Source: an uncultured delta proteobacterium
GTDB taxonomy: Bacteria > Desulfobacterota > Binatia > Binatales > Binataceae
DNA: 64,000 nt
Reading direction: 5' to 3'
Assembly: GCA_963774665.1 (NCBI GenBank)
Contig: CAVZGB010000020.1
Coordinates: 226,797-290,796, forward strand
How positions within the stretch are numbered: position 1 is the first letter of the stretch; each line of letters opens with the position of its first letter. Positions 1-8,270 of the stretch are shown here, in pieces. The notes beneath the pieces were generated by a model that ran no database searches, was not told the origin of the DNA, and worked only from the letters and a program-made list of their open reading frames with translations. Both the position numbers and the translations under genes were made by a program.

Positions 1-71
1 AGTTATCTACGCTGTACGTCGATTGAATATCCGTGTTGAAACAACATCGAAATGAGGATGGGGTGTACCAA

Positions 72-218
72 ATGAGCGAAGCAAAAGAACGCGAAGTCAT
101 CGTAAAACTACCTTACACGACCCCCAGGCTGGTCGAGTATGGCTCCGTCACGAAGCTTACTGAAGCAAAGTCAAACGGCGGGACCGACGGCGTCCCCGGC
201 GCTCATCACAACGTGTAA
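72..218 (+). CDS. Lasso peptide precursor (A). Leader MSEAKEREVIVKLPYTTPRLVEYGSVTKLTE; predicted core AKSNGGTDGVPGAHHNV.
   Basis: A 48-aa ORF is the first gene of a B2/B1/kinase set. Its leader matches the conserved lasso leader motif Y-x2-P-x-L-x3-G-x5-T-x exactly, with Thr at -2, core residue 1 = Ala and Asp at core position 8. ATG at 72 is preferred over the upstream in-frame GTG at 33, which has no ribosome-binding site (RBS). Confidence 0.6.
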   Translation: MSEAKEREVIVKLPYTTPRLVEYGSVTKLTEAKSNGGTDGVPGAHHNV

Positions 219-225
219 TTCGTCA

Positions 226-262
226 GAGAGCTGGTTCCAGTTTATCGCTGGAACCAGCTCTC
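226..262 (+). terminator. Strong stem-loop immediately 3' of the precursor gene, likely an attenuator or transcript-stabilising hairpin.
   Basis: Perfect 14-15 bp inverted repeat GAGAGCTGGTTCCAG / CTGGAACCAGCTCTC with loop TTTATCG, 8 nt after the precursor stop. The U-tract is weak (ATTCCTGT). Confidence 0.45.
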
Positions 263-295: not shown

Positions 296-1282
296 GTGTT
301 TGGATATGCAGTTTATGGTCTCGCGATCAGTTCTGACGTAACTCTCCGCAATTTGAAACCGATCGAATCGACCGAGGACCTGCAAGGGCGTCCTCGAGTG
401 CGATTGCGCCTCAAACCGTCGAAGTATACGCGGATCCAAGCTACTGACTGGTTTCTCGAGTACGCGACGCCCGCAGGAAAGCCGTTCCTGCGCCAGGCGA
501 AGGTAGCCGGCGGCTACCTGCTGAGCTTTCCCGACCTGGCCGACTTCCTGGTCTCGAAGAATGGATCGCAGGTCACGTGTTGCTGGCCGTATGCACACCG
601 CTCCTTCGACACAATTTGTCATCTCGCGGTGGACCAGGTTCTGCCCTGCGTGGCGAACCTGGTCGGTCTGCTGGCGCTGCATGCGACCGCCGTCGTGACT
701 CCGCATGGAGTCTGCGGCTTCGTGGGATCGGCGGGCACCGGCAAATCCACCCTGGCCGCGAGCTTCGCGCTCGCCGGCTACCCGACCTACTGCGACGACT
801 GCCTGGTGGTAGTTGAAGGCGGCGACGGAATCGTGGCCCAGCCGGGTTATCCCGGCGTCCGACTATGGGAAGACTCGGCCCGATCGATCCTCGGCGATCG
901 CGCCGCCGATCATCCGACGATCGGACACTATTCGAGCAAGCGCGGAGTTGAACGATTTGCGGAAACCGCCGAGGCTTCGCTGCAACCGGCGCCGCTCATC
1001 GCGATTTATATTTTGACTCGCGATATTTCGGGCACCGCCGCCGAGCGCGGTCAGACGCCGACGATCGATGAACTCCCTGCGAGCGAAATCTTTGTCCAGT
1101 TGCTGCGTTCCACCTACCGGTTGGACATTACCGATAGCGCAATGCTCAGTCGGGAGTTTCGGGCCCTCCATACCCTTGTCGATCGGGTTCCGGTGAGAAG
1201 GCTTGCCGTGCCGAACAATTTCGACGCACTACCTGCCGTGCGCGAAACGGTTATCGCCGATCTTGCGCGTATCAGAAACTGA
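296..1282 (+). CDS. HPr-kinase-like (HprK C-terminal domain family) kinase of the type associated with lasso peptides
   Basis: P-loop GSAGTGKST followed by DDCLVV, as in the HprK C-terminal domain GxSGxGKS...DD. GTG start follows an in-frame stop. Sits directly after the precursor gene. Confidence 0.7.
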   Translation: MFGYAVYGLAISSDVTLRNLKPIESTEDLQGRPRVRLRLKPSKYTRIQATDWFLEYATPAGKPFLRQAKVAGGYLLSFPDLADFLVSKNGSQVTCCWPYAHRSFDTICHLAVDQVLPCVANLVGLLALHATAVVTPHGVCGFVGSAGTGKSTLAASFALAGYPTYCDDCLVVVEGGDGIVAQPGYPGVRLWEDSARSILGDRAADHPTIGHYSSKRGVERFAETAEASLQPAPLIAIYILTRDISGTAAERGQTPTIDELPASEIFVQLLRSTYRLDITDSAMLSREFRALHTLVDRVPVRRLAVPNNFDALPAVRETVIADLARIRN

Positions 1283-1294
1283 TACTGATTCTTC

Positions 1295-1711
1295 TCAATG
1301 TTCCCCGACTGGCAGCGCAGCGTAGTTCCGACGCTCACTTTCGCCGGTGATTATACGGTCGCCGCATTCGAGCCATGCATGGGCGCGCAGAAGGTCGGAA
1401 GAATTTTTTGCGACACCGAGCCGGATTTGGCTGCTGATGCCGCGCCGCGCGAGCATCTCGCGCCCGGCGATCGCGCGAACGAGGCAATTGTCTCCGGCCG
1501 GTACGATACGGCCGGCAGTCTCAACCGCCCAACTTATTTTCGCGGTGTCGGTGTCCTGCGCGCCGGCCAGCGGCGTCACTGGCTGCAGGATTTTGCGCAC
1601 GGGAACGAACATCACTGCCAGCCGTGCTTTGACCAGCGACGCTACCGCCGATCCGAGCAGTCGGCGATCAGCGGCCGGCAGGTCAATGAATTTGCGCACT
1701 CGCGATTGCAT
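1295..1711 (-). CDS. Lasso peptide biosynthesis B2 protein (transglutaminase-like leader peptidase)
   Basis: Motif NCLVRAIAGREMLARRGISSQIRLGVAKN...HAWLECGDRII aligns with the McjB C-terminal core CLxxSxALxxxL...IGV...HSWVE, which contains the catalytic Cys and His. Size of about 138 aa is typical of a split B2. Confidence 0.75.
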   Translation of the reverse strand: MQSRVRKFIDLPAADRRLLGSAVASLVKARLAVMFVPVRKILQPVTPLAGAQDTDTAKISWAVETAGRIVPAGDNCLVRAIAGREMLARRGISSQIRLGVAKNSSDLLRAHAWLECGDRIITGESERRNYAALPVGEH

Positions 1712-1785: not shown

Positions 1786-2055
1786 ATGAAGATCGAGATT
1801 TCTAAAGATGTGATCTGGCGCGAATTGGGCGGGGAGGTTGTGATGCTCGATCTCGCCAACCAACAATATTTTGGTTTGACCGGCACCGGCAGCGAAATGT
1901 GGCAACTGATCGTGGAGCATGGTTCAGCCGACTCCGTGATCGATCGGATGCTCGCCAAGTACGACGTGGACCCCGCGAATCTCAGGGCCGACTTCGACAA
2001 GCTCGTGAACGAACTGGCCGCCAAGGGGATGTTGCGGGTCTCCCGCGGCGACTGA
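1786..2055 (+). CDS. PqqD-family protein (lasso peptide B1, the leader-recognition RRE)
   Basis: An 89-aa protein with the PqqD signature (WRELGGEVVMLDLANQQYFGLTGTGSEMWQLI...). It is divergent from B2. The internal ATG at 1786 is preferred over 1720. Confidence 0.75.
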   Translation: MKIEISKDVIWRELGGEVVMLDLANQQYFGLTGTGSEMWQLIVEHGSADSVIDRMLAKYDVDPANLRADFDKLVNELAAKGMLRVSRGD

Positions 2056-2162: not shown

Positions 2163-3419
2163 GTGGGGATAGCTTTCTCCGACATTATGCTGAGTCCCGT
2201 CAATCGATGGTTCCCGCAAAGCGCCACTCGCGACGCGCGGGTGCTGCTGACGACGCGCGCGTTGCGCGGACTTGCCGACGGCGGAGTCAGCGTATTGTTG
2301 CCGGGCTACCTGACGGCAATCGGATTCAATCCGCTGCGGGTCGGCGCGATCGTGTTCGGCACGCTGCTCGGCTCGGCGGCGCTCACGCTATGGGTTGGGC
2401 TGGCGACGGATAGATTGGGCCGGCGTCGAGTCCTGCTCGCGGCGTGCGGGTTGATGCTGTTGACGGGAATCGGATTCGCCATCACGACTAGCTTCTGGCC
2501 ATTGTTCATCGTCGCAGTGGTCGGCACGCTGAATCCTTCCGCCGGCGATGTCAGCCTCTTCCTGCCGGTCGAGCAGGCGGCGCTGGCCGAGGCCGCGGAG
2601 CCGCGAGATCTGACTGCTATGTTCGCACTGTACAATGTTGCGGGCGCATTCGCCGGGGCGTTCGGCGCGCTCGCGAGCGGCGTTCCGGCGATACTCGCGG
2701 CGCGGCACGGATGGGGACTCGCGCCGGCGCTGCGGTCGGGCTTCGTTGCCTACTCGATCCTCGCGGTCATCGCCTTCACGTTCTATCGGCGTCTTTCACC
2801 GGACGTCGAAGTCGAGCGCTACCCGGTCAAGCGCGCGCCGCTGGAGAAATCGCGCGCAATCGTCTACCGGCTATCGGCGCTGTTCAGTATCGACGCGTTC
2901 GGCGGCGGATTCGTAATTCAATCGCTGCTGGCGCTGTGGCTGTTCCGCCGTTTCAATCTCTCGGTGCAGACGGCGGGTGCATTTTTCTTCGCGGCGGGAT
3001 TGCTCGGATCGTTTTCACAGTTTGTTTCGGCGGCACTCGCGTCGCGCTTCGGCCGGATCAACACGATGGTATTCAGCCATCTGCCGTCGAATTTGATGCT
3101 GATACTTGCCGCGCTGATGCCGACGCCGGCGCTCGCGATGGGATTTCTTCTGCTCCGATCGTCGACCTCGCAGATGGACGTTCCCGCTCGGCAGTCATAC
3201 GTGATGGCGGTGGTGCCGCCCGAGGAGCGCGCGGCCGCGGCGACCGTCACGAATGTGCCGCGCAGCCTGGCGTCAGCATTCGCGCCGCTGCCGGCGGGCG
3301 CGATGCTGAATCATTCGTCGTTCGGATGGCCGCTGATTTGCGCGGGCACGCTGAAAACAATCTACGACATCTTGCTGTTGATCCAGTTCCGCGCAGTAAA
3401 ACCCACCGACGAATTTTGA
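2163..3419 (+). CDS. MFS transporter, a possible exporter for the cluster
   Basis: 418 aa with about 12 predicted TM helices and the MFS loop motif GRRRVLL. Start may be at the internal Met at 2187. Confidence 0.8.
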   Translation: MGIAFSDIMLSPVNRWFPQSATRDARVLLTTRALRGLADGGVSVLLPGYLTAIGFNPLRVGAIVFGTLLGSAALTLWVGLATDRLGRRRVLLAACGLMLLTGIGFAITTSFWPLFIVAVVGTLNPSAGDVSLFLPVEQAALAEAAEPRDLTAMFALYNVAGAFAGAFGALASGVPAILAARHGWGLAPALRSGFVAYSILAVIAFTFYRRLSPDVEVERYPVKRAPLEKSRAIVYRLSALFSIDAFGGGFVIQSLLALWLFRRFNLSVQTAGAFFFAAGLLGSFSQFVSAALASRFGRINTMVFSHLPSNLMLILAALMPTPALAMGFLLLRSSTSQMDVPARQSYVMAVVPPEERAAAATVTNVPRSLASAFAPLPAGAMLNHSSFGWPLICAGTLKTIYDILLLIQFRAVKPTDEF

Positions 3420-4471: not shown

Positions 4472-4699
4472 ATGCGTACCACGCTGGATATAGATGAGGA
4501 CGTTCTCGAGTGCGCTAAAGAGCTAGCGGCCAGGCGGCAAACTACGGCGGGGCGCATTTTATCTGAGCTCGCGCGTTGCGCGCTGGCGCCCCGGGATCGC
4601 ACTGCTCGTAAACGCAACGGGGTGCCGCTTCTGCCAAAGCAACGAGGGGTGCGGCTGGTCACGCCGGAAATTGTCAACCGGCTCCGCGACGAACTTTAA
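4472..4699 (+). CDS. vapB: Type II antitoxin VapB
   Basis: N-terminus MRTTLDIDEDVLECAKELA is typical of VapB/DUF2191 antitoxins. It is 14 nt upstream of a PIN toxin gene. Confidence 0.75.
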   Translation: MRTTLDIDEDVLECAKELAARRQTTAGRILSELARCALAPRDRTARKRNGVPLLPKQRGVRLVTPEIVNRLRDEL

Positions 4700-4713
4700 G
4701 AGCCGGATAGCGT

Positions 4714-5151
4714 GTGATCGCCCTGCTTGACGTCAACGTCCTGGTGGCGTTGTTTGATCCCGCCCATTTGCATCACGAGGCAGCCCACGTGTGGTTCGGT
4801 CGCAACCGCAGCCGCCGATGGGCGACTTGTCCGCTGACAGAAAACGCGCTGGTTCGGGTATTATCCAATCCGTCCTATCCTGGCCGGCGCACGACGATCG
4901 AGGATGCCGCAGCGCGTTTGCGAGTCTTCTGTTCGGATCGCCTGCATGTCTTCTGGGCCGATTCGGTGAGCATTCGCGACACCGGCGGGTTCCGATGGAA
5001 TCATGTTCAGGGCCATCGCCAGCTCACTGACGTCTACCTGCTGGCCCTTTCGGTATCGAATGAAGGCCGACTGGCCACTTTCGATTCGACGATCTCTCTC
5101 AGAGCGGTCCAAAGCGCGGCTCCGAATAATCTCGAACTTCTCTCAGCATAA
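4714..5151 (+). CDS. vapC: PIN-domain toxin VapC
   Basis: MIALLDVNVLVALFDP... PIN fold with an acidic residue pattern; 145 aa. Confidence 0.8.
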   Translation: MIALLDVNVLVALFDPAHLHHEAAHVWFGRNRSRRWATCPLTENALVRVLSNPSYPGRRTTIEDAAARLRVFCSDRLHVFWADSVSIRDTGGFRWNHVQGHRQLTDVYLLALSVSNEGRLATFDSTISLRAVQSAAPNNLELLSA

Positions 5152-7265: not shown

Positions 7266-7469
7266 GTTGTTCCTCCCCCGAGGACGCGATGTCTAAACTC
7301 ATCACAACTAAACAGATTGTAGTAAAAGATAACAGCGACGCAAGAGCCTGCCAACTGCCGCTCGGTCGCGTCTCGAGATCCTTCAGACGGCGCGCGATTT
7401 TGGGTAAGGTGGACAATCGTGGTTCCGGGGAAGAACTCCAGGCACCGAAGCTAATGATTTATCAGGCTT

Positions 7470-7559
7470 GGAGGGGTGGCCGAGCGGTTAAAGGCACCGG
7501 TCTTGAAAACCGGCAGGGATGAAAGTCCCTCGTGGGTTCGAATCCCACCCCCTCCGCCA
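7470..7559 (+). tRNA. tRNA-Ser (anticodon UGA)
   Basis: Cloverleaf with acceptor GGAGGGG/CCCCTCC, D-arm GCCGAGCGGTTAAAGGC, anticodon stem CCGGT/ACCGG with loop CTTGAAA giving anticodon TGA, a long variable arm, T-arm GTGGGTTCGAATCCCAC, discriminator G and CCA. Confidence 0.85.
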
Positions 7560-7826: not shown

Positions 7827-8270
7827 TCAATGGCGAGCAGGCTCGAACAGCTCAATCGGATTGCCGTCGGGATCTTCAATTTGAATCTGTTTGCCACCGG
7901 GGCCGACCTCGATTTCATTTCTAAAACGCAGACTCGCCTTTTTCAGCTCCGCAATGCGCGCAGGCAAATCCAGGACCTGAAGGAGCACACGGTTCCATCC
8001 GCCGGGCTCTTGTTGACGGCCATCGCACATTGGTCGCGACCCAGATGCCCCAGGACCGCTCAAGATTAACTTGAGGCCACCTATTGAAACCTGGCCGAAA
8101 GCCGGCAAGTTCTGCATGTCCAGATTGAAACCAAGCGTCTGCGTATAAAAAGTAATTGCCCGCTGAACATCTTTGACCTGATATCGAACACCCCAAAACC
8201 CCACAACGAAAGCCTGTGTCGTATGAGATGACTCCGAGTGTTGCTTCTCGCTCTCTTGTATTGAATTCAT
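7827..8270 (-). CDS. VOC-family protein (glyoxalase/bleomycin resistance/dioxygenase fold)
   Basis: VGFWGVRYQVKDVQRAITFYTQTLGF...IEDPDGNPIELFE. Start chosen at Met 8270, which has a GGAG ribosome-binding site. Confidence 0.7.
   Translation of the reverse strand: MNSIQESEKQHSESSHTTQAFVVGFWGVRYQVKDVQRAITFYTQTLGFNLDMQNLPAFGQVSIGGLKLILSGPGASGSRPMCDGRQQEPGGWNRVLLQVLDLPARIAELKKASLRFRNEIEVGPGGKQIQIEDPDGNPIELFEPARH

Follow-up and report, generated by a model that had tools for sequence, protein, structure and literature searches.

A kinase-containing lasso-peptide gene cluster of a Binataceae-type bacterium: precursor cores without C-terminal serine and possible phosphorylation within the ring

Precursor, kinase and cluster genes

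This report concerns a lasso-peptide gene cluster at the start of a 64,000-nucleotide stretch of contig CAVZGB010000020.1 (the window), in particular its precursor gene, A, and the gene of an HprK-like kinase, K, which follows A. Gene A (72..218, plus strand) is an ATG-to-TAA open reading frame (ORF) encoding 48 aa, the leader MSEAKEREVIVKLPYTTPRLVEYGSVTKLTE followed by the core AKSNGGTDGVPGAHHNV. The 31-residue leader (nt 72-164, plus strand) carries the motif YTTPRLVEYGSVTKLTE with Thr at -2. In a motif comparison it matches YxxPxLx3Gx5Tx without mismatch, which fixes both the Thr at -2 and the start of the core at Ala, and A passes the NCBIfam model NF033521 (lasso_leader_L3; 20.8 bits, cutoff 19). 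The core (nt 165-215, plus strand; stop codon nt 216-218) has 17 residues and is Cys-free. It begins with Ala1, and Asp8 (186-188) is the sole acidic residue at positions 7-9; closure between Ala1 and Asp8 is predicted to give a ring of eight residues and a tail of nine. Its hydroxyl residues are Ser3 (171-173) and Thr7 (183-185), with no others, and its C-terminal residue is Val. The initial annotation had claimed a core without C-terminal Ser, an Ala1-Asp8 ring and tail of these sizes, and two hydroxyl residues that both lie in the ring; the core sequence confirms all of this.

The ORF of A is kept in 11 further related loci with ratios of nonsynonymous to synonymous substitution (dN/dS) of 0.09-0.53, i.e. 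below 1. Orthologous precursors were collected at the loci L002-L005, L082-L085, L088-L090, L092 and L106. A motif scan of the 64-kb window and the 8 kb upstream found no other ORF with the leader motif. A is therefore the only candidate, and the different, Ser-ending upstream precursor for which the initial annotation had allowed is absent from that span. The intergenic region between the cyclase gene C and A (1..71, plus strand) contains the ribosome-binding region of A, GAGGATGGGG at 54-63. Between A and K, 8 nt past the stop codon of A, lies a hairpin (226..262, plus strand) with a perfect 16-bp stem and a 5-nt loop. Its RNA fold has an energy of -37.2 kcal/mol (z = -4.73; none of 200 shuffles reached this stability), and nine loci (L106, L082, L083, L084, L088 and L002-L005) retain it, with compensatory substitutions in the stem. 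It has no counterpart in L085, in which K starts directly after A, or in other cassette types (L025, L046, L014). A terminator scan found no T-run and did not call it an intrinsic terminator, and a promoter and terminator consensus scan gave nothing relevant close to A. The hairpin is probably an attenuator or an mRNA-stabilising element between A and K.

Gene K (296..1282, plus strand) encodes a protein of 328 aa with the HprK/P fold. Its AlphaFold2 (AF2) model (pLDDT 88.5, pTM 0.88) has HprK/P (1KKL/1KKM; E about 2e-6, probability 1.00) as the top match in a Foldseek search of the PDB, followed by phosphoenolpyruvate carboxykinase (PEPCK), the fold of which is related to that of HprK/P. By the fold of this model K is an HprK-like kinase, as had been proposed, and the catalytic motif agrees. 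K has no match to the Pfam family PF07475 (Hpr_kinase_C) even at E<=10, and no Pfam match at all; its match to TIGR04352 is weak (22 bits, cutoff 200). PF27840 is precomputed on some homologs of K (P0013, P0014, P0039, P0046, P0064, P0121 and P0123) and may be a recent family covering these lasso kinases. A kinase that passes PF07475, at 37.5 bits, is BsfK of Bradymonas sediminis FA350, to which K is 30% identical over 207 aa in BLASTP (E 2e-14). The conserved motif of BsfK comprises eight residues, six of which were shown to be necessary for activity (Duan et al., Front Microbiol 2023, PMC10368454). K carries all eight (H129, G144, G147, G149, K150, S151, D167 and D168) and its P-loop reads GSAGTGKST (GSAGTGKS at 144-151). 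The eight residues are invariant across 30 homologs of K, down to 40% identity, and K evolves at dN/dS 0.16-0.31 (Nei-Gojobori, against six relatives), which together argue that K is functional.

To judge from its genes, the locus holds the full set for a class II lasso peptide of a Binataceae-type bacterium. The gene order is N (minus strand), X, Y, C, A, K, B2 (minus strand), B1 and an MFS transporter gene, and only the part from A to the transporter lies inside the window. The upstream part was located on an overlapping public contig, L001, in which window position 1 is position 7945. No cyclase is present inside the window: a Pfam search of the ten largest other ORFs of the window gave no Asn synthase, and these ORFs include FMO-type monooxygenases, cytochrome oxidases, a P450 and a molybdopterin enzyme. 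The Asn-synthetase-type cyclase C (L001 6091-7932, plus strand; 613 aa; PF00733 8.4e-42, plus GATase_6/7) ends 13 bases upstream of window position 1. N (L001 3264-4487, minus strand), also upstream of the window, is an NTP_transf_5 protein (PF14907 2.4e-56). Between N and C are X and Y (L001 4834-5361 and 5464-5979, plus strand), two paralogs, each about 175 aa long, whose N-termini resemble signal peptides and which have no Pfam match. Among the loci examined they accompany only the AKS-type cassettes described below (34-50% identity in L002-L005), and a role in immunity or as a binding partner is possible.

Downstream of K, the transglutaminase-like leader peptidase B2 (1295..1711, minus strand; 138 aa) is antisense to and convergent with A and K. 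It matches NF033537 (lasso_biosyn_B2, 7e-23) and PF13471 (3.7e-24), and its dN/dS of 0.18-0.35 is similar to that of K. B1 (1786..2055, plus strand), a PqqD-type leader-recognition protein (RiPP recognition element, RRE), has 89 aa from its ATG in a frame that is open from 1720. It matches PF05402 (PqqD, 3.6e-16) and the lasso PqqD chaperone models NF033536 and NF033530, and the 89-aa call recurs in L001 and L106. The MFS transporter (2163..3419, plus strand, co-directional with B1; 418 aa, PF07690 2.6e-37) is a candidate exporter, yet it is part of the conserved chromosomal frame and not of the variable cassette. Its aa identity is 88-97% (dN/dS 0.05-0.13) to loci whose K is only 71-74% identical. 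Being far more conserved than the lasso genes and adjoining different cassette types, it may be a housekeeping neighbour and not a dedicated exporter. In L001 it is split into calls of 339 and 81 aa, which implies an indel or an assembly error in L001.

Relatives of the kinase and the cores of their precursors

Scoring of protein-database candidates gave 497 relatives of K at E<=1e-5, and contigs of one genome per species from GTDB (185,579 species) gave 402. The latter are mostly from metagenome-assembled genomes of Binataceae or labelled 'delta proteobacterium', together with Nitrospira, Entotheonella TSY1 and Burkholderiales. The K clade is monophyletic in 194 of 200 neighbour-joining bootstraps. 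Full-length K shares only 25% identity with the kinase of Thalassobaculum (over 324 residues) and 28% with that of Priestia (over 192). In the 49 loci with adequate flanks, the clade kinase is accompanied by C in 46, by N in 38 and by a motif-bearing precursor in 43.

The motif-bearing small ORFs near clade kinases, at 80 genome loci and 24 loci from a metagenome scan (the latter adding six AKS-type cores), yielded 72 distinct cores. Thr is present at leader position -2 in A and in all family precursors collected. Only one of the 72 cores ends in Ser. At least one Ser or Thr is present in every ring (72/72), and 16 of the tails have none. Ser or Thr at core positions 3-5 is found in 71 of the 72, against a mean of 37.7 (maximum 53 in 20,000) for whole-core shuffles and a mean of 51.8 (maximum 64) for ring-only shuffles; the cores are phylogenetically related, so these statistics overstate independence and are not strict probabilities. 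The signal at positions 3-5 is strong all the same. Ser or Thr immediately before the ring acid occurs in 24 of the 72. In the 66 cores from L001 and the genome loci, the first acidic residue is at position 8 in 36, at 9 in 24 and at 7 in 5. The initial annotation had suggested comparing cores across related kinase clusters; this comparison makes the missing C-terminal Ser a rule of the clade, not a peculiarity of the locus.

Control kinase-lasso clusters were found by tblastn on annotated plasmids and passed through the same extraction pipeline. Five of the six have a precursor with C-terminal Ser (Priestia, Paenibacillus, Thalassobaculum, Azospirillum and Sulfitobacter), the Priestia precursor being annotated as 'paeninodin family lasso peptide'. 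The W/YxxPxL motif of the paeninodin-family precursor stands two residues nearer the cleavage site than in A, if the site is where we take that of paeninodin to be. Two loci were left out of the controls: L109 (Rhizorhabdus), with a kinase truncated by IS6, and L112 (Tistrella), with an orphan kinase outside a lasso cluster. The sixth control, plasmid pNP243 of Butyrivibrio fibrisolvens (L114 8640-8789), is a Firmicutes lasso cluster with a kinase and N. Its precursor ends in ...ASGPLPR, without C-terminal Ser, and thus represents a second lineage outside the K family that breaks the C-terminal-Ser rule.

A separate feature of the family is a C-terminal Cys-Leu dipeptide in 25 of 66 cores, often after a Met/Gly-rich tail, as in GATGSVPDGMSGMFGMGMGMGACL of Nitrospira. 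Such cores were seen at L006, L017, L020, L023, L031, L033, L038, L043, L046, L050, L052, L053, L056, L057, L062, L065, L066, L068, L073, L075-L078 and L081. The dipeptide could mark a further modification, or a site of metal or lipid attachment.

The closest relatives form a subfamily named here after the first residues of the core in A, Ala-Lys-Ser (AKS). Its 12 distinct cores (L001-L005, L082-L085, L088, L089 and L106) adjoin kinases about 65-96% identical to K. All 12 fit [AT]-K-S-x-[GA]-x-[ST]-D, in which Ser3 and Ser/Thr7 are both invariant. Their C-termini are mostly of the type H-[NDGS]-[VA], and none of the 12 ends in Ser. In gene arrangement L106, L083 and L084 match the window, and L085 has co-directional K, B1 and B2. 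L002-L005 carry N, X, Y, C, A and K, and the MFS gene directly follows K. Neither B1 nor B2 is found within 7 kb in L003-L005, and L002 has B1 only. In these loci B1 and B2 may be supplied in trans from another lasso locus, or the clusters may be inactive. At L089 (84-560) two tandem precursors, with the cores AKSNGSSDIGSTTKHNV and TKSAGPSDASDVHKHSVP, lie upstream of a single kinase.

Binataceae loci that share the flanks of the cluster (L025, L028, L034, L019 and L008 were compared) provide a different kind of evidence. The conserved flanks consist of FMO, part of YCII and N on one side, and of B2, B1, MFS and MaoC on the other; those of L025, for example, are 84-91% identical in DNA. Between them, the 4.5-kb segment containing X, Y, C, A and K (window about -3203 to 1302, i.e. 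L001 4741 to window 1302) has no DNA similarity to these loci except for a 68% patch at the kinase P-loop, in opposite relative orientation. At the protein level, identity to L025 is 89% for B1, 78% for B2, 86% for N and 91% for MFS, against 35% for C and 42% for K. The core of L025 also differs (SGGSSLPVD..., with a 9-residue ring). By these comparisons the window holds a different, inverted C-A-K cassette within a conserved Binataceae frame, and C, A and K are inherited as one unit. The inversion explains why B2 is antisense to A and K. This pattern is consistent with a sharing of tasks: the conserved leader, or generic chemistry, would fall to B1, B2 and N, and the reading of the core to C and K. 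Exchange of K together with C and A, while B1, B2 and N stay 78-89% identical, is thus indirect support for an action of K on the core peptide.

Two further features lie downstream of the cluster. The first is a probable VapBC-type toxin-antitoxin pair (window 4472-5151), consisting of a 75-aa ORF without Pfam match and, 15 bases on, a 145-aa PIN-domain protein (PF01850, 25 bits). The second, some 7 kb downstream, is a tRNA-Ser(TGA) gene (window 7470-7559); L106 carries the stretch 7354-7558 at 90% identity.

Predicted site of phosphorylation and alternative explanations

The initial annotation started from the premise that lasso kinases act on C-terminal Ser. This holds for PadeK, ThcoK, SyanK and PsmK, which modify that residue (2021 review, PMC8498205). 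It is outdated with regard to BsfK, which phosphorylates Ser3 in the ring, and not Thr2, of the BsfA core GTSGNEVDGSTPADRGNNPGD (PMC10368454). In the present cluster Ser3 and Thr7 are the only hydroxyls, and in the clade as a whole tails may lack Ser and Thr where rings never do, positions 3-5 nearly always keep a hydroxyl, and C-terminal Ser is almost absent. For these reasons we favour, with a probability of roughly 0.6, the reading that K is a functional kinase phosphorylating the linear precursor on a hydroxyl of the future macrolactam ring. Within it Ser3 would be the favoured site, at somewhat less than even odds overall, given the family-wide conservation of positions 3-5, the lower frequency of Ser or Thr before the ring acid, and the Ser3 site mapped in BsfA, in a ring of the same size. 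Thr7 would be the clearly weaker alternative, and the rest of the probability falls on both sites, on another or on none.

That K phosphorylates the precursor, where and when it does so, and what N contributes are what we infer, and a probable order of events is as follows. While B1 holds the YxxPxL leader, K would use ATP to phosphorylate Ser3 (or Thr7) of the precursor, which at this stage is still linear and carries its leader. B2 would then remove the leader after Thr-2/Glu-1, and C would adenylate Asp8 and close the Ala1-Asp8 isopeptide around the tail, with His14 and His15 as plausible plugs. By analogy with PsmN, the phosphate may then be extended by N with a sugar or a nucleotide, and the MFS protein may export the product.

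Besides the relatedness of the cores, several points weigh against this reading. First, lasso rings are generally rich in Gly, Ser and Thr. Second, the AKS subfamily cannot choose between Ser3 and Thr7 because both are invariant in it, and in other subclades the conserved hydroxyl is found not at position 3 but at 4 or 5, where Gly usually precedes it. Third, the antisense B2 here, together with the three AKS-type relatives without B1 and B2 nearby, makes expression of every such cluster uncertain. Fourth, the split that groups BsfK with the K clade was recovered in 119 of 200 bootstraps, from saturated distances, and the clade profile gives BsfK 61.9 bits, against 113.6 for ThalK, 96.6 for SulK and 90.4 for PriK.

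The BsfK score is in fact below those of five of the seven other outgroup kinases. The catalytic core of K is also closer to the fragments of PapoK, BaceK, PsmK and PadeK given in Fig. S10 of PMC10368454 than to BsfK. Identity to PapoK is 50% over 48 aa, and a homolog search with the PapoK fragment returned three short fragments only. The argument that K is a plain BsfK orthologue and that its site must for that reason be Ser3 was considered and rejected, since kinases of the C-terminal-Ser type score at least as well. The placement of the K clade relative to BsfK and to the kinases of C-terminal-Ser clusters is poorly supported. BsfK shows that ring-directed regiospecificity is possible and does not serve as evidence by orthology. 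The safest description of the K clade on these alignments is a third clade, neither clearly BsfK-like nor paeninodin-like.

Among the alternatives, phosphorylation of Thr7, directly before the ring-closing Asp8, instead of Ser3 fares best, although we consider it doubtful. Position 7 is Ser or Thr in 12 of 12 AKS cores and in several of them follows Gly (GGT, AGS), like the G-[ST] pattern common in the family. Against it stand the family counts (24/72 before the ring acid versus 71/72 at positions 3-5) and the fact that the only mapped ring site is Ser3 of BsfA, whose ring is equal in size. A phosphate beside the Asp that the cyclase has to activate would also seem sterically awkward.

It is unlikely that K acts on something other than the precursor core, be it another protein (B1, or an HPr-like protein) or a small molecule, or that it serves as a non-catalytic scaffold. 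K lies between A and B2 and appears to be exchanged with C and A as a single cassette, and this disfavours the suggestion in the initial annotation of another substrate. In addition, adequately flanked relatives mostly have a cyclase (46/49) and a motif-bearing precursor (43/49) nearby, the full ATP/Mg catalytic motif is conserved in K, and all characterised HprK homologs of lasso clusters modify the precursor (PMC8498205, PMC10368454). In favour of another target, K reaches the threshold of no curated peptide-kinase family, and HprK-like paralogs are not confined to lasso clusters, as the orphan on Tistrella pTM2 shows.

The vestigial kinase that had also been proposed, left over and decaying from an ancestor whose cluster was of the C-terminal-Ser type, would be compatible with the ranking of C-terminal-Ser-cluster kinases above BsfK by the clade profile, but is rejected as highly improbable: the ORF is full length, the eight catalytic residues are invariant across the 30 homologs, the dN/dS of 0.16-0.31 is comparable to that of the essential B2, and the clade has 402 relatives in species-representative genomes. 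Just as improbable is a different, Ser-ending precursor encoded elsewhere, for although some relatives have tandem precursors (L089) and kinase-lasso loci may occur more than once in a Binataceae genome (L021 and L066 share a contig), the 64-kb window and the 8 kb upstream contain no second leader-motif ORF, both precursors of L089 lack C-terminal Ser and only one of 72 family cores has it. Of the three roles originally left to the kinase, modification of an internal residue is therefore the one we favour.

Phosphorylation on the ring may, more tentatively, be part of a wider picture. The K clade might be a third deep clade of lasso-precursor kinases, directed at the ring, whose regiospecificity was gained independently of BsfK. 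Its products could undergo N-dependent phospho-glycosylation or nucleotidylation, and C-A-K cassettes would be exchangeable within a conserved N ... B2-B1-MFS frame in uncultured Binatia, Nitrospirota, Entotheonella and some Burkholderiales. We regard this combination as possible and somewhat improbable as a whole.

Significance and comparison with known systems

Kinase-tailored lasso peptides amount to a handful of studied cases, and until 2023 the rule was that the C-terminal Ser is modified. After the BsfK paper, internal phosphorylation would not astonish a specialist, and the cluster is best regarded as a kinase-tailored lasso cluster of an uncharacterised clade for whose predicted ring phosphorylation there is one published precedent. 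The literature searched contained no relevant paper on lasso peptides of Binatia, Nitrospira or Entotheonella, and no description of the clade size, of the near-absence of C-terminal Ser or of the cassette architecture. What is of interest is that a whole kinase clade, with 402 relatives mostly from uncultured soil and freshwater lineages, is paired with rule-breaking precursors that keep a ring hydroxyl at positions 3-5. If the reading is true, ring phosphorylation is a common modification and not a Bradymonadales peculiarity, and the clade would be a second set of regioselective peptide kinases for the engineering of lasso scaffolds. Were the ring to carry a charged or glycosylated group, one would have to ask how the cyclase copes with it and what target the peptide has. 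The apparent exchange of C, A and K in a fixed frame of B1, B2, N and MFS is a natural test of leader-reading versus core-reading enzymes. For genome mining, the absence of C-terminal Ser is no ground for dismissing a kinase-lasso cluster.

Comparison with systems already described places these features in context. With HprK/P of L. casei (1KKL/1KKM), K shares the fold of the C-terminal kinase domain and the P-loop, with a TM-score of 0.50-0.55 normalised to the HprK/P domain. Unlike HprK/P, to which it is about 16% identical, K has an unrelated N-terminal domain and an overall arrangement resembling PEPCK, and it belongs to a cluster for a ribosomally synthesised and post-translationally modified peptide (RiPP), not to regulation of the phosphotransferase system (PTS).

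In the pseudomycoidin cluster, PsmK and PsmN place phosphate and hexoses on the C-terminal Ser (Zyubko et al. 2019, PMC6993621, as summarised in PMC8498205). Both systems combine a kinase with a nucleotidyltransferase-family gene, N in the present case. The differences are that decoration here would have to be on the ring, and that N is on the opposite strand and is part of the conserved frame, not of the cassette; N is likened to PsmN by family.

The kinases of the paeninodin/SyanK type (PadeK, ThcoK and SyanK) are HprK homologs encoded within lasso clusters, as K is, and they act on the linear precursor (Zhu et al. 2016, as summarised in PMC8498205). The order C-A-K is also common to the present cluster and the Priestia paeninodin-family cluster. 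In contrast to that type, the C-terminal Ser acceptor is absent here and from 71 of 72 clade cores, and full-length kinase identity is 25-28%, with K in a separate clade (194/200).

The bsf cluster offers a parallel for the proposed ring phosphorylation. The BsfA precursor ends in Asp, its core (GTSGNEVD...) is predicted to form an 8-residue ring, BsfK works on the linear precursor and BsfB1 speeds the reaction, although the mature Bsf lasso peptide was never detected (PMC10368454). The two clusters are unlike in several respects: leader position -2 is the canonical Thr here and Ile in bsf, so that the Ile/Val feature at -2 is not found here; the putative transporter is of the MFS type here and an ABC transporter in bsf; and BsfK passes Pfam Hpr_kinase_C, as K does not. 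On the other hand, both have split B1 and B2, a cyclase, an HprK-like kinase, the nucleotidyltransferase N and a precursor without C-terminal Ser. The catalytic motif H...GxxGxGKS...DD is identical, and B2 is 41% identical to BsfB2. Finally, both cores have a small residue at position 1, Ser3, a predicted 8-residue ring closed by Asp8, and Gly9 (GTSGNEVDG in BsfA, AKSNGGTDG here).

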